The position numbers and the translations under genes are program-made. From Spirochaetes bacterium ADurb.Bin133 (lineage in GTDB: Bacteria; Spirochaetota; GWE2-31-10; MWDO01): a stretch of 64,000 bases of DNA. Below, in pieces: positions 4,829 through 61,511 of the stretch. The stretch covers positions 8,184-72,183 of the forward strand of contig MWDO01000004.1 in assembly GCA_002070605.1 (NCBI GenBank), given 5' to 3'. Numbering within the stretch: the first letter of the stretch is position 1; each line of letters starts with the position of its first letter. The notes beneath the pieces were generated by a model. It was not told the origin of the DNA, ran no database searches, and saw nothing but the letters and a program-made list of their open reading frames with translations.

Positions 4829-4970
4829 GCCCGTCGGTCTTTTGGGGTGGGGAAAATAAATTCGACACATATGCGTCGCTGTGTTTCATCTTATAGTTTG
4901 ACGCATATGTGTCAATTTGAAGGAACTGTCTCAAGAGTTCTCATTCCTCCCTAAAAAACCGGCGAGGGTA
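4829..4970. repeat. Copy of the MITE-like palindrome-bearing intergenic element
   Basis: Left end GCCCGTCGGTCTTTTGGGG, units TTCGACACATATGCGTCG and TTTGACGCATATGTGTCAA, right end CCCTAAAAAACCGGCGAGGG. Confidence 0.6.
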
Positions 4971-5051
4971 CATTTTTAAAATAAAAATTGTTGCAATAAT
5001 TTTTCATTTGTAATATATTAATTGTAACAATCTAAATTTTGGAGAAATAAT

Positions 5052-6834: not shown

Positions 6835-7905
6835 ATGAAAGATAAAATATTGATGAAAGGTAACGAAGCGTTAGCTGAGGCGGCGATAAGAGGGGGATGC
6901 AGATACTATTTCGGTTACCCTATTACCCCTCAGAACGAGGTTCCGGCGTATATGTCGAAGCGGCTTCCCGAAGTCGGCGGGGTATTTATTCAGGCTGAGA
7001 GCGAAACGGCTTCAATTAATATGGTTTACGGGGCGTGCGCTTCCGGAGCCAGGGCTATGACGTCGTCGTCTTCCCCGGGTATATCATTAATGCAGGAGGG
7101 AATTTCGTATATCGCCGGTTCGGAAGTTCCCGCGGTTATTATAAACGTTATGAGGGGAGGTCCCGGTCTTGGAAATATATCCCCTTCGCAGGCGGATTAT
7201 TTGCAATCGGTAAAGGGGGGCGGTCACGGCGATTACAATGTAATAATATTTGCGCCGTCGACGGTTCAGGAGCTTGCGGATTATGCTTACGATTCGTTCG
7301 ACGTTGCGTTCAAATACAGGAATCCCGTTATGATTTTGGCGGACGGCGTATTGGGACAGATATCCGAAGGGGTAATTCTTCCGGAATTTAAAGAGATAAA
7401 AGACGCGCCGGAGTGGGCTTTGGGCAAAGGAAAGGAGAGAAATATTATCAGGTCGCTTTTTTTGAATCCTGAAGATAGATTGACAACGCACAATATACAT
7501 CTGCAAGAGAAGTACAGGCGGATTGAAAAAGAGATTCAATATTTTGAAGAGTACAAATGCGAAGACGCCGAATATCTGATCGTCGCTTATGGAACTACTT
7601 CCAGAATTTGCAAATCGGCGATTGATAATATGAGAAATAACGGAATTAAGATCGGACTTTTCAGACCCATCTCGTTATGGCCGTTTCCTTACGCAAAGCT
7701 TAAAGAAAACGCCGCGTCTAAAGAGACTCTGTTTGTCGTAGAGATGGCTTACAATCAGCTGGAGCAAGACGTTCGGATTGGCGTTGAGGGCGCCGCTCCC
7801 ATAGAAAGGCTAAACAAACTGGGCGGTTCGGTATTTAACGAAGAGGAGATAATTGATTTTATTTCAAATTCTATAACTTTAAAGGGAAATAAGTATGTCG
7901 GATAA
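6835..7905 (+). CDS. korA: 2-oxoacid (probably 2-oxoglutarate):ferredoxin oxidoreductase alpha subunit
   Basis: The N-terminus KGNEALAEAAIRGGCRYYFGYPITPQNEV is the typical KorA/PorA motif. Confidence 0.9.
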   Translation: MKDKILMKGNEALAEAAIRGGCRYYFGYPITPQNEVPAYMSKRLPEVGGVFIQAESETASINMVYGACASGARAMTSSSSPGISLMQEGISYIAGSEVPAVIINVMRGGPGLGNISPSQADYLQSVKGGGHGDYNVIIFAPSTVQELADYAYDSFDVAFKYRNPVMILADGVLGQISEGVILPEFKEIKDAPEWALGKGKERNIIRSLFLNPEDRLTTHNIHLQEKYRRIEKEIQYFEEYKCEDAEYLIVAYGTTSRICKSAIDNMRNNGIKIGLFRPISLWPFPYAKLKENAASKETLFVVEMAYNQLEQDVRIGVEGAAPIERLNKLGGSVFNEEEIIDFISNSITLKGNKYVG

Positions 7906-11160: not shown

Positions 11161-11318
11161 GGCTAGGGCGGGCGCTTTTGATCGTCCTGAACCAAGCCGA
11201 AGGACGACGCATATGATGTTCAAGGAGGGAATTGACACATATGCGCCGCGCTACGCCTTGATGAAAAAATTGACACATATGTAACAAATATTTTTTATTC
11301 CCCAAAAAAACCGACGGA
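11161..11318. repeat. MITE-like element copy with three CATATG units and a clear right end TTCCCCAAAAAAACCGACGG. It forms the left flank of the PIN cassette.
   Basis: Contains GACGCATATG and two TTGACACATATG units. The 44-bp block at 11238..11281 is identical to 12203..12246. Confidence 0.6.
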
Positions 11319-11502
11319 TTACGTCTGTTTTTTACTTTTTTATTGAATAAATAATATGTTTTTGTTAGTATATAACAGTTTATGTAAAATGGTAAAAATA
11401 TTTTAAAAGATGAGATTATAAGTATAATAAAGGAGTCGTTATGCTCGCAAAAAACCTTTTCAATGTAATCTCCAAGATAAAGGCGCAATTGGAGCGCAAT
11501 TT

Positions 11503-11949
11503 ATGAGTAAAATTAAAATTTATCTGGATAATTGCTGTTTTAACAGACCTTACGACGACCAGAAACAACATAAAATTTTTCTTGAAACGGAAGCTAAACT
11601 TTTTATACAGCAGAGAATTAAAAATGGGGAATTTGACCTTATCTGGAGTTTTATTCTTGATTATGAAAATTCTGCAAATCCTGATATTGAAGCAAAAAAA
11701 GCTATTCAATTATGGGAAAATATTGCAATTAAATCAATTTTATTGTCTCCTGAATTACAAAGTAATGCAAAAATTTTCAATAATAAAGGTTTTGGAATAA
11801 AAGATTCGCTACATATAGCCTGCGCTATCGAATCAGGAGCAAAATATTTTTTAACAACTGATAAGGGAATATTGAATAAAAAACATTTTATCAGTAAAAT
11901 AACAATATTAAATCCTGTGGATTTTATAGTATTGGAGGAAAACTTATGA
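11503..11949 (+). CDS. PIN-domain protein (VapC-like putative toxin ribonuclease)
   Basis: Carries a conserved N-terminal acidic residue in IYLDNCCF and the typical later motif DSLHIACAIESGAKYFLTTDKGI. Low GC relative to its neighbours. Confidence 0.75.
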   Translation: MSKIKIYLDNCCFNRPYDDQKQHKIFLETEAKLFIQQRIKNGEFDLIWSFILDYENSANPDIEAKKAIQLWENIAIKSILLSPELQSNAKIFNNKGFGIKDSLHIACAIESGAKYFLTTDKGILNKKHFISKITILNPVDFIVLEENL

Positions 11950-12155: not shown

Positions 12156-12299
12156 TTTTTTAGGGAATAAAAAAATAATTTACTAATTTAAAATATTTGT
12201 TTCATATGCGCCGCGCTACGCCTTGATGAAAAAATTGACACATATGCGTCAAAAAAAATCGCCCATATGCGTCAAATTTCCAAAAAACCGACGGCGCGA
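12148..12299. repeat. MITE-like element copy forming the right flank of the PIN cassette
   Basis: Degenerate left end CCTGTTAGTTTTTTAGGG, a conserved internal block, three CATATG units, and right end TTCCAAAAAACCGACGGCGCG. Confidence 0.6.
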
Positions 12300-12395
12300 G
12301 CAAAAGGGATAATTAATTTGATTTTCAATAAAAAAGGATTATAATGTATGATAATAAAAATAAAATTCGAGGGAGAAAAGGAATTCTTTATATCT

Positions 12396-16197: not shown

Positions 16198-16271
16198 AAA
16201 TCATCCTGAAACATCTTTTTTTTTGTAATAGCATTATTTAATAAGAAATAAAAGGAATTTATCAAAAATTT

Positions 16272-16434
16272 GCGCGCCCCGTCGGTTTTTTGGGGGATAA
16301 AAAATAATTTGCTAGTTAAAAATATTTGTTTCATATGTGTCAATTTTAATAGGCGCCTCAATCCGACGCATATGTGTCAATTTATCCTTAGCTCCATATG
16401 TGTCAATTTTTCTCCCGCCCCAAAAAACCGACGG
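16272..16434. mobile_element. Complete MITE-like element with terminal inverted repeats and three CATATGTGTCAA units
   Basis: Left end GCGCGCCCCGTCGGTTTTTTGGGGG and right end CCCGCCCCAAAAAACCGACGG are inverted repeats of each other. The conserved internal block GATAAAAAATAATTTGCTAGTTAAAAATATTTGTTTCATATGTGTCAATTTT is present. Confidence 0.65.
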
Positions 16435-16447
16435 AGTATAAAATTTG

Positions 16448-21230: not shown

Positions 21231-21310
21231 AATTCCTCCAAATCGGATTCTTCATGGGAAGGAAATTATATACCATTTTTAACTTAATTGCAAGATAATT
21301 CTTTACAAAT

Positions 21311-21392
21311 GGCGCCCCGTCGGTTATTTGGGGATTGAGAAATATTTGTTCCATATGCGTCAAATTTCTCTTCCCTAAAAAACCGCCGGGGT
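21311..21392. mobile_element. Short MITE-like element with inverted-repeat ends and a single CCATATGCGTCAA unit
   Basis: GGCGCCCCGTCGGTTATTTGGGG ... CCCTAAAAAACCGCCGGGGT. Confidence 0.6.
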
Positions 21393-21421
21393 AAAACAAA
21401 TGAGACTGTTTGAAAAGGTAG

Positions 21422-24780: not shown

Positions 24781-24894
24781 TACTAAATCGAAACCTTTAT
24801 TTTATATTCTTAACTGTCATAATAAATTTCTTAAATATGATATGAACAATTAAATAACATATTTATTAATAATAGTAAATATAAAATAAAAATA

Positions 24895-25068
24895 ACGCCG
24901 CGCCCCCGGTTTTTTGCGGTAAAAAAATGACACATATGCGACTCCTTTCGTATAGGGACGTCCGGTCGTATGAGTTCCTGTGGGGGAAAAATTGACGCAT
25001 ATGTGTCATTATGGAAATCGACGCATATGAGCTGCATATATAACGCGCCGCGCGTCGATAAAAAGGGC
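24895..25068. repeat. MITE-like element copy with three CATATG units and degenerate ends
   Basis: Left end ACGCCGCGCCCCCGGTTTTTTGCGG, followed by TGACACATATGCGAC, TTGACGCATATGTGTCA and TCGACGCATATGAGC. Confidence 0.55.
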
Positions 25069-28275: not shown

Positions 28276-28533
28276 TTAGATATCATTATATACATTTCTT
28301 CGATGACCAATTTTATAAATACATACAATTTGATTAATTTCATCGACGGTATAAATAACTCTGTAATCTCCAATTCTTATTCTATAACCGTCGGCATTAA
28401 CTAATTTTGTAGAAGTAGCCGGAATCGGATTCTCGGATAAATTTCCAATCTTCTCAATTATCTTCTTCAATTGATCTTTAGGAATGGTTCTGGTTTCTTT
28501 ATCAATTTTATTGTCAAATATTACCTCATACAT
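28276..28533 (-). CDS. Type II toxin, RelE/ParE family
   Basis: C-terminal hallmark GYRIRIGDYRVIYTVDEINQIVCIYKIGHRRNVY. 85 aa. Confidence 0.8.
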   Translation of the reverse strand: MYEVIFDNKIDKETRTIPKDQLKKIIEKIGNLSENPIPATSTKLVNADGYRIRIGDYRVIYTVDEINQIVCIYKIGHRRNVYNDI

Positions 28534-34469: not shown

Positions 34470-34579
34470 CGGCGCCCGTCGGTTTTTTGGGAGAGGGGAA
34501 TTGACACATATGACGTTAAAGATAAAATTGACACATATGGAGCAAATATTGTTATCCCCCAAAAACCGACGGGGCGCCC
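34470..34579. mobile_element. Prototype ~110-bp MITE-like element with perfect terminal inverted repeats and two TTGACACATATG units
   Basis: CGGCGCCCGTCGGTTTTTTGGG ... CCCCCAAAAACCGACGGGGCGCC. The ends are reverse complements over about 20 bp. Confidence 0.7.
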
Positions 34580-39600: not shown

Positions 39601-39603
39601 AGA

Positions 39604-39732
39604 GCCCGCCGGTTTTTTTGGGGGAGGAGAAATTGACGCATATGCGACGGCGTCGATAACGCGCGACAATTGTTGCATAAAAATTCGACGCATATGTGTC
39701 AATTGTTTTTTTATCCCCAAAAAACCGACGGC
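39604..39732. mobile_element. MITE-like element with inverted-repeat ends and two palindrome units
   Basis: GCCCGCCGGTTTTTTTGGGGG ... TCCCCAAAAAACCGACGGC, with TTGACGCATATGCGAC and TTCGACGCATATGTGTCAA inside. Confidence 0.65.
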
Positions 39733-39756
39733 TTACGGCGCTAAATTAAAATATTC

Positions 39757-42910: not shown

Positions 42911-43825
42911 ATGGTTAGTTATTTAAAAATTGAAAACAATAAATTGGTAGAATCCAACTTAGAAGAGTCAAAGGTAATAATTTATAAAAAGCCGGACAGA
43001 GATGAGATGAACTATTTGGTCGGCGCTTACGGGATGGACGAGCATAACGTAATCTCTTCTATAGATCCGGACGAATTGGGAAGAATCGAGTTTGAAGAGG
43101 ATCATATTATGTTTTTGTTAAAAAGACCCAAGGACTACTCTAATGAAGACAATCTATTATTTAAAGTAACTTCCGTCGGCGTATTCATTTTTAAAGATAA
43201 AATGATAATTATTATGCCGGAAGATATTCAAATATTTGAGGGGAGGCAATCTTTCAAACTTAATTCTCTTTTGGACGTTTTATTAAAACTGCTGTTTGGC
43301 ACAATTTCTCATTTTCTCGGTCATTTAAAAGTAATTAATATGATATCGGATTCGTTGGAGCAAAAAATAAATACGTCGATGGAGAATAAATTTCTAATTA
43401 ATATGTTTACTCTTGAAAAGAGCTTGGTTTACTTCCTAAACGGTATTAATTCTAATTCGGTATTATTTGAAAAAATGAAAGCCGCCGCCGCAAGGATCGG
43501 ATTCACCCCCGACAATTTATCTCTACTGGACGATATAATAATCGAGAATACTCAGTGTTACAAACTGGCGGAAATCTACGCTAACGTCTTGTCGGGGATT
43601 ACCGCCGCAAGAGCCGCTATTGTGAGCAACAATCTTAACGTCCTTATGAAAACCTTAAATATTATAACTATTTCGATAATGGTGCCTACTTTTGTAGTCA
43701 GCGTTTTTTCTATGAACGTAGGCATTCCTATGCAAGACAAACCGTTTGCGTTTTGGGTCATTATGGGACTCTCCGCCGTATCGATTATTTTAACGTCCAT
43801 TTTTTGGAAATTAAAGAGATGGTGA
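42911..43825 (+). CDS. CorA-family divalent-cation transporter with a variant S-M-N loop
   Basis: Two C-terminal transmembrane helices with FSMNVG between them, in place of the canonical YGMN motif. Size about 300 aa. Confidence 0.6.
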   Translation: MVSYLKIENNKLVESNLEESKVIIYKKPDRDEMNYLVGAYGMDEHNVISSIDPDELGRIEFEEDHIMFLLKRPKDYSNEDNLLFKVTSVGVFIFKDKMIIIMPEDIQIFEGRQSFKLNSLLDVLLKLLFGTISHFLGHLKVINMISDSLEQKINTSMENKFLINMFTLEKSLVYFLNGINSNSVLFEKMKAAAARIGFTPDNLSLLDDIIIENTQCYKLAEIYANVLSGITAARAAIVSNNLNVLMKTLNIITISIMVPTFVVSVFSMNVGIPMQDKPFAFWVIMGLSAVSIILTSIFWKLKRW

Positions 43826-43979
43826 TTTTTAGCGTAAAATTTTACTTCAAACGGCGTTTGTTACTCTGAATTTATATCGGTTGTAGCGGGTTTTGCGTTT
43901 TTTGAACTAGCTATTTGCCGGTTTTTAAGATCAACGGTTTGCGCCGAATATAATCATATAATTTTAAAAAGGAGATTCT

Positions 43980-45650
43980 ATGAAAAGCGTAAAATATACG
44001 CCAAAATTAATTACGGTTTTTAAAGAGGGATACTCTTTTAAAACTTTTACAAAGGACTTATCCGCCGGAGTTATTGTCGGGATTGTGGCTCTCCCGTTAT
44101 CAATAGCTTTTGCTATCGCATCCGGAGTCAAACCGGAGCAGGGGTTATACACCGCGATTGTCGCCGGAATAGTTATATCCATACTCAGCGGCAGCCGCGT
44201 TCAGATAGGGGGACCTACCGGAGCTTTTATTGTAATGCTTTACGGTATTGTACAAAAATACGGCTACGACGGATTAGCCGTCGCCGGAATGATGGCCGGA
44301 ATACTTTTGGTCATAATGGGTATAGCGGGGCTGGGCTCCGTTATCAAGTTTATCCCGTATCCCGTAACGGTCGGATTTACGACGGGTATAGCTCTAATAA
44401 TATTTACGACTCAGATTAAAGACTTTTTAGGATTGCAAATAGACAAAGTTCCGGCGGAATTTATTAATAAAATTATAGCATATTCGCAAAATATACTTAC
44501 CGTCAATCCTTACGCTCTATTAATTGGAGGGGTATCTATCGTTATTATGATATTGTGGAAAAAAGTTTCTCTCAAAATTCCCGGTTCTCTAATTGCGATT
44601 ATCGTATCCACCCTGATAGTTTTGATATTCAAACTACCGGTCGATACGATCGGAAGTAAATTTGGATCCGTTCCAAATATGCTGCCTCTACCCAAGTTTC
44701 CTCATATAGACTTTAAAGTACTGCCGGAACTTTTTCAACCGGCTCTATCGATCGCGCTTCTAGCGGGTATAGAGAGTCTTCTCTCCGCGGTAGTCGCCGA
44801 CGGTATGACCGGCGGGAAACATAGATCGAATATGGAGCTAATCGCTCAAGGGGCGGGAAATATAGTATCTCCGTTATTCTGCGGAATCCCCGCGACCGGA
44901 GCGATTGCCCGAACGGCGACAAATATTAAAAACGGGGGAACGACTCCGATAGCCGGCATTATACACTGCGTTACTTTATTATTAATTATGCTTTTTTTCG
45001 GCAAACTGGCGGCTCTGATTCCTATGCCCGCGTTATCGGCAATTTTAATTATGGTTGCATATAATATGAGCGAAATTCATATTTTTGTTAAGATTTTTAA
45101 AAGCACAAAGAGCGACGTTATTGTTCTTTTAGTAACATTTTTATTGACGGTAATTTTAGATTTAACGGTGGCGATACAAGTCGGAGTCGTTCTTGCTTCT
45201 CTACTTTTTATGTATAGAATGTCAAACGTATCTCAAGTCGGAAAGATGATTGTCGACGACGAAAACGAAACGGACGCAAATTCAATTAAAAATAAAAACG
45301 TTCCCGCCGGCGTAGAAGTCTATGAAATATACGGTTCATTCTTCTTTGGGGCGGCTGAAAAATTTAAGGACCAAATAAAATCCATAGAAAAAAAGCCAAA
45401 GATCTTAATACTTAGAATGAGGAACGTTTTAATGATAGACGCGACCGGTTTGACGGCTCTTGAAACGATTATCGTAGATAGTCAGAAACAGGGGATCAAA
45501 GTTGTTCTTTCCGGAGTTAGAACTCAGATGTTTTTAGTTTTACAAAAATCCGGTTTGGTTAAAAAACTTGGCGAAGAAAATGTAGCGGCAAACATAGACC
45601 TAGCTTTAGCCAGAGCTAATGAAATATTATCTGAAGAAGCTGAAATTTAA
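43980..45650 (+). CDS. SulP-family anion transporter with C-terminal STAS domain
   Basis: Sulfate-permease signature region and a STAS domain at the C-terminus. 556 aa. Confidence 0.9.
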   Translation: MKSVKYTPKLITVFKEGYSFKTFTKDLSAGVIVGIVALPLSIAFAIASGVKPEQGLYTAIVAGIVISILSGSRVQIGGPTGAFIVMLYGIVQKYGYDGLAVAGMMAGILLVIMGIAGLGSVIKFIPYPVTVGFTTGIALIIFTTQIKDFLGLQIDKVPAEFINKIIAYSQNILTVNPYALLIGGVSIVIMILWKKVSLKIPGSLIAIIVSTLIVLIFKLPVDTIGSKFGSVPNMLPLPKFPHIDFKVLPELFQPALSIALLAGIESLLSAVVADGMTGGKHRSNMELIAQGAGNIVSPLFCGIPATGAIARTATNIKNGGTTPIAGIIHCVTLLLIMLFFGKLAALIPMPALSAILIMVAYNMSEIHIFVKIFKSTKSDVIVLLVTFLLTVILDLTVAIQVGVVLASLLFMYRMSNVSQVGKMIVDDENETDANSIKNKNVPAGVEVYEIYGSFFFGAAEKFKDQIKSIEKKPKILILRMRNVLMIDATGLTALETIIVDSQKQGIKVVLSGVRTQMFLVLQKSGLVKKLGEENVAANIDLALARANEILSEEAEI

Positions 45651-48166: not shown

Positions 48167-48254
48167 CTTAATAGCCTCCTAATAAATATTTCATTATAAT
48201 ATACAAAAAAAAATCGATTTGGTAAATATATTTTATCATTATTTTTTACCAAGA

Positions 48255-48465
48255 GACGCATATGCGTCAGACCAAAACCGCATATGCGTCAAATTACTCT
48301 TAACATCATATGTGTCAATATTTCTTTCTACGACAATTGTCGCGCGTTATCGACCCGGCGCGTATGTCAAATTCTCTCGGGGAGCATGGCGTCTCATATG
48401 TGTCAATTTTTGTCGAGGAGCGACGCGGCGTCGCATATGCGTTGATTTATTTTGACACATATGCG
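48255..48465. repeat. Array of six 18-bp palindrome units (CATATG-centred, TTGAC/GTCAA arms) with variable spacers
   Basis: CATATG centres lie at 48259, 48281, 48307, 48396, 48434 and 48458. Sub-repeat TCGAGGAGCGACGCG-N-CATATG. Confidence 0.65.
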
Positions 48466-48576
48466 ACGATTTTTTCATCGGGGAGCGACGGGGCGCAAAA
48501 TACCGATTAAAAAGATAGAAAACAATTCAATTTAAGTGTATAATATAGGTTAAATAAAAAAAAGCAAGGCGTATAG

Positions 48577-50076
48577 ATGAAAAAACATTTGATTTTGGCG
48601 CTGTTAATTGCCGTCATGGCAGATATGTATCCGGTAAAAATTAAGATCGACCAAAAGGATAAAACGAAAGAGCCGATTATCTTACAGGCGATATTAGATA
48701 CCGGTTTCGGAATTGTCGGGGTAAACGACGGCGTTGGGGTAACGGATTATCAATCTTATTTTATCAAGACCGCTTTTCATATTAATGATTTTGGGATCGG
48801 TTTGGATTTTACTATCAGGTTTAAAATATTCTCTTTGGAACCCGAGTTCCGTTTTCGCGATTGGTATATCGAAGGGGATCCGTTGGCGACCGTTTTTTTA
48901 TATCTCGACAGGATAGATTATATACGATACGGGAACGCGCAAAGCCCGATTTTTTTTACGACGGGCAAGATTCCTTATACGACTTTCGGATCGGGGACGC
49001 TTGTAAACAATTTTCATAATAACTTTTTTGTCCCGATTAATAAAGAAAACGGCGCGTATTTTCGCCTCGACGGAGAGTATTTTGAAAAATATAAGATAAA
49101 AAACATCCCTATCAATTTTACTTTTTTTTGCCCGGATTTACTGGATCCCGACATATTTGGATTTGATTTCAATATAAACCCCCTTGGATTTGCTAAATTC
49201 AAAGATATTTTCAAATTATCGTTAGGCGTTACTTTTATGTCGGATCTTGATACTTTTGAGAGAAACAGGCTGAGCGCTCTCAAAGGGCAATATTTTCAAA
49301 GCCATAGAAATTTTCACGTTAACGGATTTAGTTCGGCGTTGATTAGCGGATCCGTTCCGATATCTTTTGTATATTTTAAAAAGGATTACGTCAAAGTATC
49401 TGTAATCGACGAAGTAGCTTTTGCATACAACGGAGCCAATCCGTCCGATCCGGATAAGTCCGATTTTGGGATTGCCAATAATCTTGAAGTGGAAGCGAGA
49501 TTCTTAAACGTTAAGAATTCCGGATTGCTTTTAGGATTAAGCTCCGGATTTATCGTTCAAGGCAAAGATTTTTTTATAAATTATTTTTCCTCTAACTACC
49601 AGATAGTCAGGCAGAAGCAGTATAGCGGGCAGAGCGAAGATTATAATTTATACGTATCTGCGGGATTTGGTCTGTACGCTTTAAACGACAATTTGCATTT
49701 CAAATTTAAGATACTAATGCCGTTAATAACGGACGTATTCAAATCTAAATACGCGATGGAATTTAGATTGTCCGAATTTGCCGTTAAAGGGTTGACGATA
49801 GACGTTTTTTATGAAACGGGATGTACCGATCTGCACATATCCGGATCAAACGGGGGACACTTTCTCGAGTCGATAACGGAGAATTTCAGATTTTACGCCG
49901 AAGTAAGCTATAAGATTTATTCCGCTAAGATAAGTTTTATTATCGGGCTTCAAACTCCCGGTTGGATAGTCGAGGAAGACTATTTGCCGCCGGAAAATCC
50001 TAACGAGTTTTATATAGAGAGATATGGCGCTGATATTCAAAAATTTGTCGGAGTGGGGGTGTCTTTTGTTTTATAA
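48577..50076 (+). CDS. Hypothetical secreted / outer-membrane-like protein
   Basis: Signal peptide MKKHLILALLIAVMA. Aromatic-rich alternating pattern. C-terminus ends in a hydrophobic residue. No domain recognised. Confidence 0.5.
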   Translation: MKKHLILALLIAVMADMYPVKIKIDQKDKTKEPIILQAILDTGFGIVGVNDGVGVTDYQSYFIKTAFHINDFGIGLDFTIRFKIFSLEPEFRFRDWYIEGDPLATVFLYLDRIDYIRYGNAQSPIFFTTGKIPYTTFGSGTLVNNFHNNFFVPINKENGAYFRLDGEYFEKYKIKNIPINFTFFCPDLLDPDIFGFDFNINPLGFAKFKDIFKLSLGVTFMSDLDTFERNRLSALKGQYFQSHRNFHVNGFSSALISGSVPISFVYFKKDYVKVSVIDEVAFAYNGANPSDPDKSDFGIANNLEVEARFLNVKNSGLLLGLSSGFIVQGKDFFINYFSSNYQIVRQKQYSGQSEDYNLYVSAGFGLYALNDNLHFKFKILMPLITDVFKSKYAMEFRLSEFAVKGLTIDVFYETGCTDLHISGSNGGHFLESITENFRFYAEVSYKIYSAKISFIIGLQTPGWIVEEDYLPPENPNEFYIERYGADIQKFVGVGVSFVL

Positions 50077-52828
50077 CAAAAGAAATCTTCCGATTATTGT
50101 AGTTTTCTTGTTTTTTTTTGCGCGGTTTTCTGTAAACGCCGGCGAAGCATTTTTACAACTGATCGATACTTCCGATAGCTCGTCGGACTATTTTTTTTAC
50201 GACAAAGATTCTAAGGAAAATCTTATAAAAATTAACGATTATCTCTATTCCGGATCGACCTTTCTGACGCTTGAGAAACAGAGAGCGGAATTTGTCATAA
50301 TTAAGGACTATACGCCTATCGGTTCTATAGTATTAAGCGAAAATAGCGATTTTTATTTTTACAACGCTGGCGCTAAAAACAAAATTTACTTAAAAATGAA
50401 TTACGGTAGAATAAGGAGCGTTATAGACGAGGGAAACCAAATTGAGATAGAGCTAAAATCTGTAAAACTATACAATAACGGCGGCGATTTTGGCGTAACG
50501 ACTATATTAAACGAAGAAAAAGATCTCGTCGGTTATACGATCGTTTTTAACGGAGTAGTGGAGAATTATTTGATCAAAGATAATAGATCGGTAAAACTTG
50601 AAAAATGGGATAAGGCGGGCTTTAACGAAAATACCCTTGAAGAGATAGAGAAATTTACTCCGGAAGATCTGGAAATATGGCAAGAAAAGATGTCTTTTAA
50701 CTCTTACTATATTTCTAAAACGACGCCGATAGTTTTAGAGAGCTTATCGTTTGATACGATTGAACAATTTTCCGACCCGACCGGCGATTTATTAATGATA
50801 AGCGACTTAACGGAGGATATTCCCGACCAAAACGACCCGACGGAAGACTTAACGGCTCCGGAATTTAAGCGAGATGAAACCGAGGAAACAGATAAAACGG
50901 AACTAATGCCTCCTAAAGAGGAGATTTTTGCAGAATTAGCCAAAATTAAGCCGAAAAACTTCGTTTTAGACGAAGATTCCGATAGAGATTATACTTACGC
51001 CCCCGAATCTAAACTAAAAGAGCCGCTTTATCCCGTTATAGAAGATAAATTGATCCCAATTATGTTTATAAGCAAAACCGGCGAGGTAGACGAAGATATC
51101 GAGTCGGAGAAGGAGAGTCCGCTTAAAGAATATATCGAAGACGCTGAGCCTATTTTTAGCGATACGGACGACTCAAACGACGTTTTCGACGATATTGCTT
51201 TGCTTGACGAAACTTCGGATGCGGAAGTTCCGGACGCCGACGAGTCGGCCGACAGCGTTGTTATCGAGCCGAAAATTGAAAGCAAGATCGTCGTTAAAGA
51301 TCAAACGTCGGACTTGAAAGCGATAAAACTGCTGAGATTTTTTTCGTCGTTTTTCGCTAATGAAACGGGATTTTATAGTTACGATAAAAAGACCTGCGTA
51401 AAATTTGTATGGAAACCGGGCGTCGCGCTGGAAAAAGAAAAATTTGAATTTAGTTTTTATTTTCCCGTATTTTTCTCCGTAGACAAAATGTTTGCAAATA
51501 ATATGTTGTTGCCCGTCAATAATACCAATAACGAGTGGTCGTTTGGGTCGGATCAAAACGGCTCGACGGTAAAAATCGTTCTCGACGCCGTCGACGACGC
51601 TTTGTTAAAATTGAGAATACTCAGATACAATAACATAAACGATAATTTCTTCTTTCAGATGGGGGAGTTGAACAATTTTTCAGACTCCTCGAGATTTTCG
51701 CTGGTAAATTTTTGTTCTAAAATATTCTTCCCTATGTATAGAAAAACCTCGTTCATAATAAAAGGAGAGTCTAATATATTTGAAGGATTTTTCTATGCGG
51801 AAGATATTCTGCCGAAAGGGCTTTACGGACTGTCGTTGAAATTTATGACGCCGTATTCGAGTTTTAAATTCAAGTTTGGAATAGATATATTTGCCGACGG
51901 CTACGATTTTATGAATTTTGACAAGGGGCGCGAGCTGTATTTTCCGACGCAAGTCAATCTTATTTCGGAATTCAACGCCTTCAATATACCGTCGTTTAGT
52001 TTCTCTATATTCTTGAATATGGGGGCGCTATTTCCGTTGTCTTACAATTTCGGATCGAATAGTTCGCTCGCCATTAATACTATAAAAACTAATCCCCTTA
52101 TGCTAGTCGATAATATCTCCGCCGCTATGGGGCTGTCGATCAGGATTAAGAAACTGCAGTTTATCGGGGAGATAATCGCCGATTCGGGGTTGAACAAAAT
52201 CGGACTTTTCGATCTATCCTATTCGGCAAAAAGAGACCAAAGGATGACCGACTCGATAAATTGGTTGACCTCTACCGGCGCAAAACCGATCTCCATATCT
52301 AATTACAATTTTGGGGCGAGAGTAAGTTTCCTGATAGATATAGATAAATATCTCTATATGGAAACTTCATATCAAGCGACTTTTACTTACTATAAGACGA
52401 TAATTTTTTCAAAGAGTTATTACGACAAATTTTTCTTTAAGTTCTCGGCGGATTCGCGAGACAAATTAAAGATAAATCTTAAACTCTACCTCGAATGGCA
52501 GATAGAAAATCTAGCGGTAAGCATAATCGATACGATAGATCAAAAATACGAAACTATTTTCGATAACAATATTTTCTATCTGGGCTTCTCGATCAAGCCG
52601 CATAATATTGTCGATATAAATATCCGCGGCGGCTTGTATCCCGACTTCTACAATACGACGACCGATATGAAACTGCTATTCGACTGCTACGTCTCGATAA
52701 ACCCCGAGCCGCTTCCGCTAAAAAAGACGCCGCCGAAAAAACCGATTGAAACAAAAACAACAAAAACAACAAAGACAAAGAAAACAACGACAAAAAAATC
52801 GGAAAATAAACCGCCGCCGGCTAAATAA
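50066..52828 (+). CDS. Large hypothetical secreted protein with an acidic disordered region and a basic KTT-repeat C-terminus
   Basis: Signal peptide follows the TTG at 50066 (MFYNKRNLPIIVVFLFFFARFSVNA). The track start at 50024 overlaps the upstream gene by 53 nt. D/E-rich segment around 50760-51290. C-terminus KTTKTTKTKKTTTKK. Confidence 0.5.
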   Translation: MFYNKRNLPIIVVFLFFFARFSVNAGEAFLQLIDTSDSSSDYFFYDKDSKENLIKINDYLYSGSTFLTLEKQRAEFVIIKDYTPIGSIVLSENSDFYFYNAGAKNKIYLKMNYGRIRSVIDEGNQIEIELKSVKLYNNGGDFGVTTILNEEKDLVGYTIVFNGVVENYLIKDNRSVKLEKWDKAGFNENTLEEIEKFTPEDLEIWQEKMSFNSYYISKTTPIVLESLSFDTIEQFSDPTGDLLMISDLTEDIPDQNDPTEDLTAPEFKRDETEETDKTELMPPKEEIFAELAKIKPKNFVLDEDSDRDYTYAPESKLKEPLYPVIEDKLIPIMFISKTGEVDEDIESEKESPLKEYIEDAEPIFSDTDDSNDVFDDIALLDETSDAEVPDADESADSVVIEPKIESKIVVKDQTSDLKAIKLLRFFSSFFANETGFYSYDKKTCVKFVWKPGVALEKEKFEFSFYFPVFFSVDKMFANNMLLPVNNTNNEWSFGSDQNGSTVKIVLDAVDDALLKLRILRYNNINDNFFFQMGELNNFSDSSRFSLVNFCSKIFFPMYRKTSFIIKGESNIFEGFFYAEDILPKGLYGLSLKFMTPYSSFKFKFGIDIFADGYDFMNFDKGRELYFPTQVNLISEFNAFNIPSFSFSIFLNMGALFPLSYNFGSNSSLAINTIKTNPLMLVDNISAAMGLSIRIKKLQFIGEIIADSGLNKIGLFDLSYSAKRDQRMTDSINWLTSTGAKPISISNYNFGARVSFLIDIDKYLYMETSYQATFTYYKTIIFSKSYYDKFFFKFSADSRDKLKINLKLYLEWQIENLAVSIIDTIDQKYETIFDNNIFYLGFSIKPHNIVDINIRGGLYPDFYNTTTDMKLLFDCYVSINPEPLPLKKTPPKKPIETKTTKTTKTKKTTTKKSENKPPPAK

Positions 52829-52904
52829 ATTTTCGGAATTTACCGCTCTCCGCTATCTTTATTTTTAAAAAAAGATCGACAAGCGCTTGAAATTATGTCG
52901 CAGT

Positions 52905-53075
52905 CTGTCGGCGTTTTGGGGCTAAAAATTTTTGACACATATGCGTCGCATAATAATTCGACGCATATGTGTCAATTTCTTCATCGAGAAGCGGCGCGTA
53001 TCATATGTGTCAATTTCTCATCGAGGAGCGACGCGTATCATATGTGTCAAATTCTATCAAGACGCGTCGAGGCGC
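52905..53075. repeat. Array of four to five palindrome units with left end TGTCGGCGTTTTGGGG
   Basis: CATATG centres lie at 52939, 52964, 53002 and 53039. Tandem sub-unit TCATCGAGGAGCGACGCGTATCATATGTGTCAATTTC. Confidence 0.65.
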
Positions 53076-53256
53076 ATAATATATCTAAAAAATATTTGAC
53101 AATTTTTCAATTTAGTTTATACTCGTTCGATATTGAAAAAATATTTCTATCGCCCGATTGAAAACTACGGACGGCGAAAGCGCGAAGCGTTTTCAGCGGG
53201 ATATACGGCATTCTTTGAAACGCAATATTTAACAACTTAATTAAGGAGATTTTGGC

Positions 53257-54558
53257 ATGGCATATCCAAAAAGAATTGTAATAACCGGAATGGGAATAAA
53301 CGCGCCTAACGGCGATACTCCCGAAACTTTTTATAATAATCTTATAGCAGGGAAGTCCGGTATAAAAAAAATGACGAGCGTTAACACCGATAGAATCAGA
53401 TGTAAGATCGGAGGCGATCTGGGAGACTACGACGTTAGAGGAAAGTTGGACTCGTTGAAAGATAATATTCCGGAAGACGTTTTAAAAAGAGCTAAAAAGA
53501 TCATAAAGACCGCCCCTTTTTCGACAAAGCTTACGCTTCTAGCCGCTTTGGACGCTTACAAAGACGCCGGATTATTTAAAAACGCCCCCGATCCGGACAG
53601 AATGGCGGTAGTTTTGGGGGGACACAATTTCCACGACAACTACATTGTAAAGAACGTAAGGCAATTTGAAGAAGAGCCGGAGTATATAGACGGATTGATG
53701 GGTATCTGCGTTTTTGATAGCGACGTTGCGGCAAGTATAACGGAATCCTTACAAATATATGGGCCTATGTACATAACCGGCGGCACTTGCGCAAGCTCGG
53801 GTATGGCGATGAAAAACGGCATAATGGAGATATTGTACAACGATTGCGATATTGCTATGATCGGCGGGGGGCTTTTGGATTATTCAGACGTAGGATATCA
53901 AGCTCTTATTTTAGTAAGCGCGATTTCGTATAAAAGTTTTAACGACGAGCCGGAAAAGTCCTCCAGACCGTACGACGTTAGAAGAGAGGGATTTGTTCCG
54001 TCCCACGGAACCGGTATAATGATTATCGAGGAGTTGGAACATGCGTTAAAGCGAGGAGCTCATATCTACGCCGAGATACTGTCCGTCGAGTCAAACTGCG
54101 ACGGCAACCACTTATCAAATCCATCGGTAGAGGGGCAGACTAAAGTTATGAAAAGAGCCATTCAAAAAGCCGGGATTAAAGTTGAGGATATAAGCTACGT
54201 TAATTGTCACGCTACTTCTACTCCTCTTGGAGACGAGGTAGAGCTTACGACTATAAAAAACGTTTTTGGCGAACACGCTAAGAATATTAAGGTCAACGCC
54301 ACAAAATCGATGATAGGTCATACCGGCTGGACTTCTAATACGGTAGAATTAATTGGAGCGATTATGCAGATGAATAACTCGACTCTGCATCCTTCTATAA
54401 ATATCGAAAATCTTGATCCGAAAATTGCCGCTTTGGGGATAGACGTTTGCGCCAATAAAAAAGTTGAAAATTATAATATTGACTATTTGTTGAAAAACTC
54501 TTTTGGTTTCGGCGGCATAAACTGCTGTTCGATAATAAAAAAATGGAAGGGAAAATAG
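53257..54558 (+). CDS. Beta-ketoacyl synthase (FabF/FabB-like KAS). Cys-His-His triad retained; GH-box divergent.
   Basis: N-terminus RIVITGMGINAPNGDTPETFYNNLIAGKSGI. Cys in GGTCASSGMA, His in NCHATSTPLGDEVE, and His in KSMIGHTGW, which departs from the canonical GHLLGAAG. Confidence 0.85.
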   Translation: MAYPKRIVITGMGINAPNGDTPETFYNNLIAGKSGIKKMTSVNTDRIRCKIGGDLGDYDVRGKLDSLKDNIPEDVLKRAKKIIKTAPFSTKLTLLAALDAYKDAGLFKNAPDPDRMAVVLGGHNFHDNYIVKNVRQFEEEPEYIDGLMGICVFDSDVAASITESLQIYGPMYITGGTCASSGMAMKNGIMEILYNDCDIAMIGGGLLDYSDVGYQALILVSAISYKSFNDEPEKSSRPYDVRREGFVPSHGTGIMIIEELEHALKRGAHIYAEILSVESNCDGNHLSNPSVEGQTKVMKRAIQKAGIKVEDISYVNCHATSTPLGDEVELTTIKNVFGEHAKNIKVNATKSMIGHTGWTSNTVELIGAIMQMNNSTLHPSINIENLDPKIAALGIDVCANKKVENYNIDYLLKNSFGFGGINCCSIIKKWKGK

Positions 54559-54562
54559 AGAG

Positions 54563-55702
54563 ATGGATTTCTTAGATAAATATTTAATTGATCAATTGGT
54601 TAAAGACGCGGAAGACGTTTGGCCGAAAAGGTGGAGCGAGATTGAAAGTTCTTTTCAGAAAATTACGCTGTCGGCCGCCGTCGACATTATTATTTGGGAT
54701 TTATCGCTTTTTTCAAAAAAGGGCGATACCGGAACTTATTCTGATATGAAAAATACGGTAGGCATAACGCCGGACAATGAATACGTATTTAAAAAACTTT
54801 TAGATATCCTTGTCGAAGAAAATATTTTATCGCGCGAGGGCGAAGTTTACGTATGCGTCGATAACGATCCGGAGATTCATTCTCCGATAGAGTATATAGC
54901 GGAGGCGGTAAGAGACATTCCGGAAGAGTGGGCCGCTTTCCAATGGCTGGCTAGAGGTATCGGCGGATTGAAGAGATTTATCAAAGGAAAACTATCCGGC
55001 GAAGAGGCGATGTTTGGTCCGTGGGGCGATTTTACCTTAGTAGGTCAAGTATATTATACCAGCGAAGTTTACGGTTATTGGTCTAAGCTCGCCGGTAAAA
55101 CTGTAACGCGGCTTATAAACAACGTTTTTGATAGAAAAATAACCGTTTTGGAGATTGGAGCGGGAACCGGCGGAGGAACGACCGATTTGTTTAAAAGTTT
55201 GGGCGAACCTAGAAACAAAATCGAGAAATATATTTTTACCGATATTCATAAAAGATTGGTAAAAAAGTCTTCCAAAAATTTTGAGGAATATTTCGATTTT
55301 ATGGAATTTAAGGGATTAGACGTAACTCTTCCGCTTGAAGAGCAGGAGGTCGATCTTGAAAGCGCCGATCTGTTATACGCCGTAAACGTCATGCACGCGA
55401 CAAACAATATACTATCGGCTTGTTCCGCAATGTATAAGCTTATTAAAAAAGGGGGGTATGCCGTTCTTGGCGAAATAGCCCCGCCTAAAGATAAACTTTA
55501 CAGGTATATGGAGCTTACGTTTGGGTTATTATCAAGCTATTCGTATTACGAAGATAAAGAGTTGCGACCGCTGTCTCCGATCTTAAGACCCGAACAGTGG
55601 ATAGAATATTTTAAAAAAGCGGGCTTCAGAGACGCTATTGCGATACCGGGAGATAGATTGCCCGGTTGCGACAGGGGCGGAGCGATTATTGCGATAAAAT
55701 AG
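54563..55702 (+). CDS. Class I SAM-dependent methyltransferase, polyketide/O-MT-like
   Basis: Motif I VLEIGAGTGGGT. 379 aa. Begins 5 nt after the KAS stop. Confidence 0.6.
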   Translation: MDFLDKYLIDQLVKDAEDVWPKRWSEIESSFQKITLSAAVDIIIWDLSLFSKKGDTGTYSDMKNTVGITPDNEYVFKKLLDILVEENILSREGEVYVCVDNDPEIHSPIEYIAEAVRDIPEEWAAFQWLARGIGGLKRFIKGKLSGEEAMFGPWGDFTLVGQVYYTSEVYGYWSKLAGKTVTRLINNVFDRKITVLEIGAGTGGGTTDLFKSLGEPRNKIEKYIFTDIHKRLVKKSSKNFEEYFDFMEFKGLDVTLPLEEQEVDLESADLLYAVNVMHATNNILSACSAMYKLIKKGGYAVLGEIAPPKDKLYRYMELTFGLLSSYSYYEDKELRPLSPILRPEQWIEYFKKAGFRDAIAIPGDRLPGCDRGGAIIAIK

Positions 55703-55738
55703 TCCTGTTTCAATAATTATAATTCGGAGAAATATCTT

Positions 55739-56596
55739 ATGAGTAATTTTAGAGTCGCGTATTTACTTATCGTTTTGGTTTTGTTATTTGGCTGTTCGGT
55801 GAAAAAAGATGCAAAATATTATAAAAAGGTTGAAAATCTTTTTATTGACAATAAAATAGACAAAATATTAAAAATAGCGGGAAAAAATGAAAATAAGATC
55901 GACGTGAATTTAATTTTTTTTTCCATAAGACATAACAAACCGGAATTACTAAAAAGATTTATTCCGCGCTCGCTGACCTCCGATTACGCCAAAAATGATC
56001 TTTTCAAATCTGCGATTATATCCGAAGCGATTGATTCCGGGAGCGTTGAAATGTTTAAGATCGTCGACGATCAAATAATCAACGACGACGATTTCTACAT
56101 AAAATATAATAATTTTGAAGGGACAAAACTTGATAAAGCGGTTCAATGCGGCGACAAGGAGATGATCGACTATCTGCTAAGTAAAAATTCGAAAGGAGTA
56201 TGGACTCTCTGCTATGCGGTACAGAAGAATGATATCGAACTTGTCGATAAAGTGTTTCATACAGGCTCGGGTAAAACCTGGGATTTTGCTCTGGTGGTCG
56301 CGGTACAACAGGGCAGTTTTGATATTATCAAATATTTTATCGAACAAAAAAAAATATCGCCAAATATATATTTTGAATGGAAGCCGGATTACCCGCCGTT
56401 TGTGAGAGAATTTTACGAACTATACCAGGTAGATCCCGGCGGCGGTTATACGGAAACGGCTACCGGAGAAGCGTTGAGATTTATGAATATGATGGTAGTC
56501 GATTATTTAAGATCCAAAGGGGGAAAGTCCATGAAAGAACTTGGATTTACTCCGCCTAAACCTTCCGAAGAATTTCATAGCGACCATACGCATTAA
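55739..56596 (+). CDS. Lipoprotein with ankyrin-like repeats
   Basis: Lipobox LLFGCS. Repeated helix-pair motifs (DKAVQCGDKEMIDYLLSKN, CYAVQKNDIELVDKVF, ALVVAVQQGSFDIIKYFIEQ). Confidence 0.4.
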   Translation: MSNFRVAYLLIVLVLLFGCSVKKDAKYYKKVENLFIDNKIDKILKIAGKNENKIDVNLIFFSIRHNKPELLKRFIPRSLTSDYAKNDLFKSAIISEAIDSGSVEMFKIVDDQIINDDDFYIKYNNFEGTKLDKAVQCGDKEMIDYLLSKNSKGVWTLCYAVQKNDIELVDKVFHTGSGKTWDFALVVAVQQGSFDIIKYFIEQKKISPNIYFEWKPDYPPFVREFYELYQVDPGGGYTETATGEALRFMNMMVVDYLRSKGGKSMKELGFTPPKPSEEFHSDHTH

Positions 56597-60780: not shown

Positions 60781-60861
60781 AAGAATTTCCTTAACAAAAA
60801 GATGTATTTATAAATATTTATATTTAATTACTATATAAATGTCAAATTAATATTATTTGTA

Positions 60862-60930
60862 TCCCGTCGGGTTTTTTGGGAATTAAAAATATTTGTTTCA
60901 TATGTGTCATTTTATTTGACACATATGCGA
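60862..60930. repeat. Truncated MITE-like element (left end plus conserved block plus two units) with no right inverted repeat
   Basis: TCCCGTCGGGTTTTTTGGG-AATTAAAAATATTTGTTTCATATGTGTCATTTTATTTGACACATATGCGAC. Confidence 0.55.
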
Positions 60931-61039
60931 CTGTTTCGACATGCGGGTCAAGGGCGTTTCGCCCTTGCGCTGTCCGAGTAGGACAAGATCTTGACTTTTT
61001 ATAAAATTTAACTTATATTTAGAATAAGAGGTAAATAAT

Positions 61040-61249
61040 ATGAGAACAATAATAATAAAAACTACCGATAAATCCTATAATCAAGTTATTAGTTTAATAA
61101 AAAAAATTCCGGATATTAAATATTACGACGACGAAGACGATGTTTTTACTGAGGAAGATGAAAAAGCGTATATTGAAGCAAAAAAAGAATTAGAAAATGG
61201 CGAAACAAAATCATGGGATGAATTAAAAAAGGAACTAAATCTTGTATAA
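61040..61249 (+). CDS. Putative antitoxin of a RelE/ParE module
   Basis: A 69-aa acidic protein overlapping the toxin start by 8 nt. AT-rich. Confidence 0.45.
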   Translation: MRTIIIKTTDKSYNQVISLIKKIPDIKYYDDEDDVFTEEDEKAYIEAKKELENGETKSWDELKKELNLV

Positions 61250-61511
61250 GATTGAAATTTCAAAAAGCGTTGAGAAGTTCTTAAAATCTAGAAATAGAAA
61301 TGTTCAAATAAAAATTAGTAAAATGATAGATGTTATTTCAGTTAATCCATTTATTACTAATCTTGATATAAAAGAGCTTAAAGGTAATAAAAATCATTAT
61401 AGACTAAGAGTTGGTAAATATCGCATTTTATATGAAATAATCGACGAAAAGATATTAATATATTTTTATAAAGCAGATTCAAGAGGCGATATTTATAAAA
61501 AGTCTGGTTAG
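61242..61511 (+). CDS. Type II toxin, RelE/ParE family; paralogue of 28276..28533
   Basis: HYRLRVGKYRILYEIIDEKILIYFYKADSRGDIY is the RelE/ParE C-terminal hallmark. Confidence 0.75.
   Translation: MYKIEISKSVEKFLKSRNRNVQIKISKMIDVISVNPFITNLDIKELKGNKNHYRLRVGKYRILYEIIDEKILIYFYKADSRGDIYKKSG

Follow-up and report, generated by a model that had tools for sequence, protein, structure and literature searches.

A palindrome array upstream of a KAS gene is probably an incomplete copy of a mobile, MITE-like repeat family in an uncultured digester spirochaete

The palindrome array at positions 52903–53085 is probably one incomplete copy of a lineage-specific, non-autonomous family of mosaic transposable elements, which is MITE-like and has a BOX-like build. 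Positions are those of the window, the whole stretch of 64,000 nucleotides that was analysed. The family is mobile: copies carry terminal inverted repeats and target duplications, and two of them are absent from the orthologous spacers of a sister species, one of which is a clean empty site. The element most likely has no dedicated function.

Organization of the array at 52903–53085

The array is located between the 920/934-aa gene, whose stop codon is at 52828, and the KAS gene (53257). It is composed of a hairpin with 20-bp arms, four CATATG cores, and two 37-bp tandem units that are 92% identical. The features of the array and of the adjoining promoter region are as follows.

52903–52921, + strand: degenerate left terminal (T-like) module, GTCTGTCGGCGTTTTGGGG, with at most three substitutions to the 17-mer T consensus (T+ at 52905)
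52932–52975, unstranded: head-to-head pair of P modules, TTGACACATATGCGTCGCAT aata ATTCGACGCATATGTGTCAA, identified by inverted-repeat search, motif search and fold
52964–53001, + strand: P-S unit 1, 38 nt, CATATGTGTCAATTT followed by CTTCATCGAGAAGCGGCGCGTAT
53002–53038, + strand: P-S unit 2, 37 nt, CATATGTGTCAATTT followed by CTCATCGAGGAGCGACGCGTAT
53039–53085, + strand: terminal P-S' unit, CATATGTGTCAAATTCTATCAAGACGCGTCGAGGCGCATAATATATC, after which there is no right terminal module
53096–53123, + strand: promoter-like site of the KAS operon, TTGACA-16-TATACT, outside the repeat and kept in the array-less sister species

The left T module agrees with the family T consensus, CC(C)CGTCGGTTTTTTGGGG, at 14 of 19 positions. 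The arms of the hairpin at 52932–52975 are 20 nt long, 95% complementary, and separated by a loop of 4 nt. Two of the four CATATG cores belong to full 14-bp palindromes inside this P pair, GACACATATGCGTC at 52934–52947 and GACGCATATGTGTC at 52960–52973, and the other two to half sites (53002 and 53039). Three head-to-tail units, each of which opens with CATATGTGTCAA, start at 52964, 53002, and 53039. Tandem Repeats Finder reports a period of 37 for 52964–53066, with 2.4–2.8 copies and 88–90% matches.

A previous sequence-only reading had described a palindrome array with a 37-bp tandem sub-repeat at 52905–53075. The array is real, as the motif GACRCATATGYGTC has 15 matches with at most one mismatch in the window, compared to 0.00 expected from 100 dinucleotide-preserving shuffles. 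The four to five units counted in that reading fit the four CATATG cores, and its 37-mer is a consensus that occurs verbatim nowhere: positions 52981–53017 match it with two mismatches and 53018–53054 with one.

The copy at 52903–53085 does not combine two T ends with a target duplication, as neither a right T module nor a direct repeat at its edges was found. We class it as incomplete or rearranged, since its only terminal module is the degenerate left T and the right one is missing. The right end of the array (..TATCAAGACGCGTCGAGGCGCATAATATATC) resembles the gene-proximal end of the array upstream of a malQ-like gene (..TTCAAGACAGTCGCCGCATTATATATTTT); judging by this likeness of sequence, it may be a regular array terminus and not a random truncation. 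The open reading frame 52895–53161 (88 aa), which spans the repeats, is probably a spurious product of them. A coding role of the units was rejected, as their lengths of 37–49 nt are not multiples of three and the reading frames across arrays consist of frame-shifting repeats. A CRISPR array was also rejected, as the units are contiguous, head-to-tail, and have no unique spacers between them.

A dispersed family of modular elements

Elements of the family are assembled from short modules. The terminal module T (..CCCGTCGGTTTTTTGGGG) stands at each end of a complete copy, the two in inverted orientation, and the terminal inverted repeat sequence of the family is CCGTCGGTTTTTTGGGG. Module A, ATAAAAAATAATTTRCTARTTAAAAATATTTGTTT, is AT-rich and optional. 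Module P, CATATGYGTCAATTT, is present at least once in each complete element and is often arranged head-to-head, which forms palindromes of 14–18 bp; many P sites are asymmetric half sites (CATATGTGTCAATTT) and not palindromes. Module S (TCATCRRGGAGCGACGCG..) is optional, and P and S together form a tandem unit of 37–47 bp (CATATGTGTCAATTT + TCATCRRGGAGCGACGCG). A further module, ACGACAATTGTCGCGCGTTATCGAC, occurs occasionally. Complete copies in the window contain one to three P modules.

In the 64-kb window, modules of the family occupy 12 gene spacers, or about one every 5 kb, and consecutive elements are 1–10 kb apart. The elements are 84–250 nt long, add up to about 1.7 kb, or 2.7% of the window, and make up most of the window spacers longer than 190 bp. 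The P half-site CATATGYGTCAA has about 37 matches with at most one mismatch in the window, nearly all of them within the 12 spacers; motif matches inside genes are few and isolated. The family shares with MITEs that it is small, non-coding, multi-copy, and mainly intergenic. Besides the array at 52903–53085, the window contains the following elements.

4829–4971, + strand: complete element flanked by ATTTTTAA
6438–6535, + strand: degenerate element with A and one P
11200–11320, − strand: element with a single terminal module, left of the PIN cassette
12158–12300, + strand: A, three P and right T, to the right of the PIN cassette, at the synteny breakpoint 12309
16273–16439, + strand: reference complete element, left T, A, three P and right T, with the 8-bp duplication AAAATTTG (16265–16272 and 16440–16447)
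21312–21395, + strand: minimal complete element, 84 nt, one P, flanked by ACAAATG (21305–21311 and 21396–21402)
24893–25060, + strand: one-ended element at the synteny breakpoint 24897
34470–34577, − strand: complete element with both terminal modules
39601–39735, unstranded: complete element that begins right after a stop codon, 75 nt from the synteny breakpoint 39810
48252–48505, + strand: partner array upstream of gene 48577, without terminal modules
60854–60990, + strand: left T, partial A and two P, upstream of a ParE toxin-antitoxin pair

The partner array contains seven CATATG cores, two S modules (48410 and 48475), and the internal module ACGACAATTGTCGCGCGTTATCGAC. Its presence at about 48252–48505, on the other side of genes 48577–52828, bears out the sequence-only reading, which had placed an array there. 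The genes that adjoin elements have unrelated functions; they include those for a FabI-like reductase, PFOR, aconitase, a toxin-antitoxin system, an acyltransferase, and an XPB helicase, as well as beta-lactamase-like, CheX, histidine kinase, OmpA-like, ferredoxin, KAS, and CoA-enzyme activase genes.

Homologues of the proteins encoded next to the array are labelled as Spirochaetes or Spirochaetota MAGs. Metagenomes and MAGs (GCA_022704815.1 and GCA_035351215.1) from anaerobic digesters and sludge include more than 23 contigs that encode an identical KAS protein. The sister taxa used for comparison have 85–89% nucleotide identity and are represented by contigs L017/L019 (XPB helicase locus), L012 (KAS locus), and L021/L022 and L023/L024 (M15 peptidase locus). 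The species of the window occurs in digester samples such as JGI 3300010365, and a sister species of about 87% identity in samples SRR29782965 and SRR28229723.

Terminal repeats, target duplications, and an empty site

T modules of 17–20 nt are present in inverted orientation at both ends of six copies in the window and of four copies in contigs L031/L035. The terminal inverted repeats reach the length of at least 10–15 bp looked for in MITEs, and in copies such as 39601–39735 subterminal P sites lengthen the inverted repeat to about 40 nt. Target-site duplications of 7–8 bp flank three copies, AAAATTTG at 16273–16439, ACAAATG at 21312–21395, and ATTTTTAA at 4829–4971; they lie within the range of 2–10 bp of MITEs and are ambiguous for about half of the complete copies. 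MITEs are defined by terminal inverted repeats and target-site duplications (PMC3049150) and are abundant in Spirochaetes (PMC11602168). Their defining features also include a small size, many copies, a place between genes, and polymorphic insertions (PMC3049150 and PMC11602168).

Two window elements are missing from the orthologous sites of the sister taxon represented by L017/L019, so that filled and empty versions of the sites exist. In L017, the element 16273–16439 is exactly absent and a single copy of the 8-mer is kept, which constitutes a clean empty site. Read on the bottom strand, the window has CAAATTTT[element]CAAATTTT and L017 a single CAAATTTT, and the two BLAST blocks between the window and L017 overlap by exactly the 8-nt target. 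At the second site, the 95 nt at 21312–21406 correspond to 17 nt in L017, which weakly resemble a remnant of T, and this absence could equally represent a loss in the sister species. Each of the missing copies is a single element that carries no cargo. The sequences of relatives (L012–L014 and L017–L024), about 76 kb in total, contain no T, no S, and one P match, compared to 12 loci in the 64 kb of the window. The copy at 52903–53085 has no orthologous empty site, because the sister species carries a different upstream gene there.

Pfam searches identified no transposase or recombinase among the open reading frames of the window or in about 9 kb past its right end, and no autonomous element with T-matching ends was found in the window or the fetched loci using Pfam and gene tables. 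Phage and plasmid collections and viral contigs contain no match to a complete element or array. Two matches to the 17-mer terminal motif in viral contigs are not accompanied by P or S modules and were taken as chance. A literature search with the motif strings returned only unrelated primer sequences.

The P-S unit as an expandable internal module

Scans for the P-S unit identified 11 loci in metagenomes and, with a gapped pattern, at least one locus in the genome collection. The unit has the consensus CATATGTGTCAATTT-TTCATCAGGGA-GCGACGCGGCGC-ATATAGCTC and is mostly 46–48 nt long. The 37–38-nt units of the window align with the consensus, and by this alignment they appear as a shortened version of it. 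In contig L035, positions 7353–7564 form a complete element of the type T-(P-S)x3-T directly upstream of the trigger-factor gene (tig). The array upstream of the malQ-like gene differs in length among three contigs whose flanks are identical (15, 17, and 24 units) and has 29 units in a variant strain, and that at locus B, at the 3' end of a FAD-oxidoreductase-like gene, has 22–33 units; the numbers were derived from short-read assemblies and may be collapsed, and several contigs end inside arrays. Since the P-S arrays at malQ, locus B, and 48252 are devoid of any T module, such arrays might spread or arise by a route other than T-ended elements.

Within the species of the window, ten contigs that are 98.5–100% identical to it show no variation in either of its arrays, and ongoing instability is not seen at 52903–53085, across which ten of ten contigs are identical. 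It is in our opinion unlikely that the P-S arrays are hypervariable minisatellites, which would be placed just ahead of promoter −35 regions or at the ends of genes, change length fast (from 15 to at least 29 units at a single locus), and act as preferred rearrangement junctions. In that case they would tune the expression of their neighbours in this spirochaete lineage and also rearrange the surroundings of genes, among them toxin-antitoxin and surface-protein genes.

For the reading of the array as an incomplete copy of a transposable element, we propose the following mechanism. A complete element consists of a left T, an optional A, one or more P, optional S modules, and an inverted T on the right. 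Copies are inserted into AT-rich spacer DNA with a target duplication of 7–8 bp. Insertion would be catalyzed by a transposase encoded elsewhere, which may bind T and the subterminal P sites and make cuts staggered by 8 bp. The number of P-S units, which differs between contigs with identical flanks, could increase and decrease by slippage or unequal recombination and thereby give arrays of 2–33 units. The copy at 52903–53085 kept a degenerate left T, the P-P hairpin, and three units, and ends without a right T. Rearrangement junctions relative to relatives coincide with its right edge and with the left edge of the 48252 array. Possible side effects of the element are that it provides a strong hairpin 3' of the upstream gene, that it keeps this gene apart from the intact KAS promoter, and that it acts as a substrate or hot spot for rearrangement.

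Arrays and the promoters of neighboring genes

The palindromes formed by P (TTGACRCATATGYGTCAA) could be operators bound by a protein dimer, for example a global regulator or nucleoid-associated protein, and the arrays could be regulatory or architectural platforms. The motifs are indeed near-perfect palindromes of 14–18 bp. Both arrays of the window abut promoter regions, and four of five P-S arrays point at the start of the next gene downstream (KAS, gene 48577, malQ, and tig). A gene start is present in all 12 element-bearing spacers and elements in none of the eight convergent spacers, but the latter absence is not significant (0/8 versus 12/47). The regions upstream of the orthologous KAS, ferredoxin, XPB, and acyltransferase genes are nevertheless conserved in relatives that have no P site, many P sites are half sites without dyad symmetry, and copies have terminal inverted repeats and target duplications. 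Moreover, arrays reach 33 units, one of them, at locus B, borders the 3' end of a convergent gene, and the flanking genes are functionally unrelated. We consider the operator function very improbable.

The upstream and promoter regions of the KAS and ferredoxin genes are conserved in relatives without arrays, and the arrays are therefore not required parts of these promoters. The TTGACA inside P was rejected as a promoter element, as it has no −10 hexamer at a usable spacing; the sole good match is at 53096–53123, outside the repeat. The sequence-only reading had suggested that the repeats coordinate the regulation of the genes that they bracket. Such coordination is unlikely, since the neighbours have unrelated functions and relatives that lack the repeats have kept the KAS and ferredoxin promoter regions.

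Synteny breaks and bracketed genes

The segment 48252–53076, which includes the 48252 array, the pair of genes 48577–52828, and the array next to KAS, is not at the corresponding position in relatives, since the homology stops before the left array and resumes after the right one. The homology with L021 stops at 48241 and that with L023 at 48234, which is 14–21 nt short of the first palindrome in the left array. Next to the ferredoxin gene, L023 has the gene for an HtrA-like protease instead of the surface-protein pair. The homology with L012 resumes at 53077, just past the right array, where the upstream gene of L012 is RecO-like. L012 shares only the KAS-methyltransferase-ankyrin block (53077–56572), and the neighbours of the block differ on both sides. 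The segments bracketed by repeats are thus not universally syntenic, in keeping with the variability that the sequence-only reading had anticipated: relatives have other neighbours at the edges of 48252–53076.

Synteny breaks at 12309, 24897, 39810, 48241, and 53077 are at elements or within 75 nt of them, and breaks or indels at about 15400, 18079, 46019, and 56572 have no element. Five of nine breaks or indels are therefore in element-bearing spacers, which is weakly above the share that carries elements, whether counted among spacers of at least 50 bp (12 of about 29) or among gene junctions (12 of about 55). Since the excess is weak, the association of the family with rearrangement junctions is suggestive.

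The coincidence of the breaks with the two arrays could also mean that a composite mobile cassette, with the arrays as its ends, brought the pair 48577–52828 to this site, and that the family mobilizes bracketed genes in general. The homology with relatives ends and resumes exactly outside the two arrays (48234–48241 and 53077), with other neighbours at both positions in relatives, the P-S units of the two arrays are in direct orientation, and direct repeats of 51 nt and 94% identity lie on either side of the PIN cassette. However, the outer ends of the segment (48252 and 53085) have no terminal modules and the sole T-like module faces inward, and the whole segment is not surrounded by a target duplication of the kind that delimits a composite transposon. 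The two arrays are merely 76% identical over 54 nt, and the GC content of the gene pair, 38%, is typical of the window. The different neighbours on both sides of the KAS block in L012 are better explained by rearrangements, and four of the nine synteny breaks have no element. The density of one element per 5 kb makes bracketing expected. A cassette of this kind is very improbable.

The role in gene mobility that the sequence-only reading had proposed holds in so far as the repeat family is itself mobile, as shown by its terminal inverted repeats, target duplications, and absences. It does not extend to the movement of the bracketed genes, as the arrays have neither outward-facing ends nor a common duplication. 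The recurrent bracketing of gene cassettes, on which that proposal was based, carries no meaning: 12 element-bearing spacers in 64 kb tile the whole window into intervals of 1–10 kb, so that every gene group is bracketed, and bracketing is therefore uninformative.

It is highly improbable that the hairpins act in RNA, as transcription terminators, stabilizers of the 3' end of the upstream gene, or a structured non-coding RNA. The predicted folds are very stable (−72.7 kcal/mol, z = −6.8, and z = −5.8 for a complete copy), elements at tandem gene junctions begin 0–75 nt past the upstream stop codon, and weak terminator-like matches occur at 52960–52973 and 52993–53011, but the stability follows trivially from the inverted repeats, the main hairpin is not followed by a proper U-tract, the orientation of elements relative to flanking genes is mixed, and relatives have the same junctions without elements. 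Rfam searches of the whole window at gathering thresholds and of the region at E ≤ 10 gave no family match and nothing meaningful.

Implications for annotation and metagenomics

The interpretation of the array as an incomplete copy of a mobile repeat family explains the likeness of long gene spacers to each other and removes the spurious open reading frame 52895–53161 from the annotation. The density of the family warns against deducing bracketed cassettes from repeats on both sides of a gene group. For repeat biology, the family contributes a clear MITE burst from an uncultured spirochaete of digesters and a BOX-like expandable module that exceeds 1 kb, with target duplications and one clean empty site documented from metagenomes alone. 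In metagenomics, the arrays likely cause contig breaks, as several contigs end inside them, and they are candidate strain markers. The family has not been described before. It is an ordinary kind of selfish DNA and reveals no new mechanism; what is new in detail is the family as such and the great length of its internal arrays.

Comparison with known repeat systems

BOX elements of Streptococcus pneumoniae (boxA-boxB(n)-boxC) are modular intergenic repeats, the terminal modules of which pair as inverted repeats, as in the family described here. Their build is A-Bn-C, in which the number of boxB units varies, and longer boxB arrays vary more between strains (PMC3049150). Both systems place an internal module of about 45 bp in variable tandem number between terminal modules, here as T-(P-S)n-T with n from 0 to at least 33, and both are MITE-like and non-coding, with highly folded predicted transcripts (PMC3049150). 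The likeness is one of architecture; no resemblance to the box modules was seen, with the modules compared without alignment to box sequences. Unlike BOX, the family belongs to another phylum, Spirochaetota, its arrays are much longer, up to about 1.3 kb, and many have no terminal modules, and its target duplications, at 7–8 bp, are more distinct than what has been reported for BOX.

Correia elements (NEMIS) of Neisseria and bacterial MITEs are elements of 70–170 bp with terminal inverted repeats and target duplications. They share with the family a dense intergenic distribution beside promoters, lineage-specific bursts, and ties to rearrangements. Correia elements duplicate TA and have terminal repeats of 26 bp (in part from PMC3049150), whereas the duplication here is 7–8 bp and the interior is composed of short palindromic modules in mosaic arrangement, with tandem expansion.

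The REP sequences and BIMEs of enterobacteria resemble the family as mosaic clusters of short imperfect palindromes in alternating orientation, with conserved linkers and a variable number of units. BIMEs differ in that they lack both terminal inverted repeats and target duplications, are associated with RAYT, of which none was found here, and are mostly at the 3' ends of genes. It is highly improbable that the array consists of REP/BIME-type units spread by a RAYT tyrosine transposase acting on single-stranded hairpins: short palindromes clustered in alternating orientation with linker motifs between them and a strong folding energy (z = −6.8) would agree with it, but complete copies have long terminal inverted repeats and 7–8-bp duplications, which are not products of Y1/RAYT transposition, the open reading frames of the window include no IS200/IS605-like gene or Y1 transposase domain, and the elements are upstream of promoters and not between convergent genes.

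MIRU minisatellites (VNTRs) of Mycobacterium tuberculosis are, like the P-S arrays, composed of intergenic tandem units, 40–100 bp in length, at several loci, with copy-number polymorphism among strains. MIRUs are not known to be bounded by inverted repeats and often stay in frame with the flanking genes. The units described here, in contrast, have a period of 37–49 nt, which is not a multiple of three, and are parts of transposon-like elements. The architecture that the family does display is that of BOX, with terminal modules around a variable tandem module.

Elements beside toxin genes

The PIN toxin cassette is flanked by two elements, copies of the MITE-like intergenic repeat family, that resemble each other far more closely than any other pair of copies. 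They have in common a 51-nt direct repeat with 94% identity (window 11238-11288 and 12203-12253, 965 bp apart). The PIN gene (11503-11949) has a GC content of only 27%, and homology with the sister species L017 ends at window 12309, beside the right-hand element of the cassette. The window also contains two ParE-type toxin-antitoxin pairs:

28276-28533, adjoining a 521-bp spacer without any element
61040-61511, directly 3' of an element

Differences from sister species and near-identical contigs

Relative to window 18079/18080, L017 (13152-15133) contains two additional hydrolase genes spanning about 2 kb, one coding for an alpha/beta hydrolase and the other peptidase S9-like. On one side of them is the helicase-associated gene, and on the other the DZR/PRT gene. 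The window has no repeat element at the site of this indel. The contigs of the sister species L021 and L022 end in an (AG)n run (positions 1-27 and 1-29, respectively), approximately 350 nt upstream of a ferredoxin gene. This site corresponds to the position of the left array of the repeat family, upstream of gene 48577 in the window, and the region is therefore difficult to assemble in both lineages.

Contigs L003 and L005 are near-identical to the window outside an approximately 2 kb CorA/SulP region (window 43250-45250). This region contains 321 of the 322 differences of L003 and all 72 differences of L005, the latter within 44766-45250, where the L005 contig begins. The differences have the appearance of an imported recombination tract.

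Surroundings of the KAS gene

In the more distant relatives L013 and L014, a short-chain dehydrogenase and HMG-CoA synthase come after the KAS-methyltransferase pair. Only L013 continues with enoyl-CoA hydratases, ACP, and phosphopantetheinyl transferase, and its KAS gene group is a beta-branching lipid or polyketide-like cluster. After its own pair (within 53257-56596), the window species has only an ankyrin-repeat protein. Upstream, the 920/934-aa gene codes at its 3' end (window 52749-52796) for a low-complexity K/T/P-rich tail. Its AAC/AAA-rich repeats, with a period of 3-15, are unrelated to the palindrome family.

Internal module and long arrays

Some elements carry an additional conserved internal module, ACGACAATTGTCGCGCGTTATCGAC, which is partly palindromic, centred on CAATTG, and occurs in both orientations:

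window 48330-48355
window 39650-39675
L031 5667-5700
L031 7098-7130

A long array is carried at the 3' end of a gene for a 523-aa FAD-oxidoreductase-like protein and is oriented into the gene end. It contains up to 33 P sites per locus and is about 0.9-1.1 kb long where spanned; several contigs begin or terminate within it:

L028 6525-7625
L031 40-970
L032 344-1265
L030 3189-3848

Another array, built of units of about 47 nt, lies 5' of a malQ-like gene:

L011 1990-3150, 24 units
L026 159-842, 15 units
L027 8931-9740, 17 units
L033 797-2175, 29 units

Since its flanks are identical among L011, L026, and L027, the malQ-upstream array looks like a minisatellite (VNTR-like) locus, barring array collapse in short-read assemblies.
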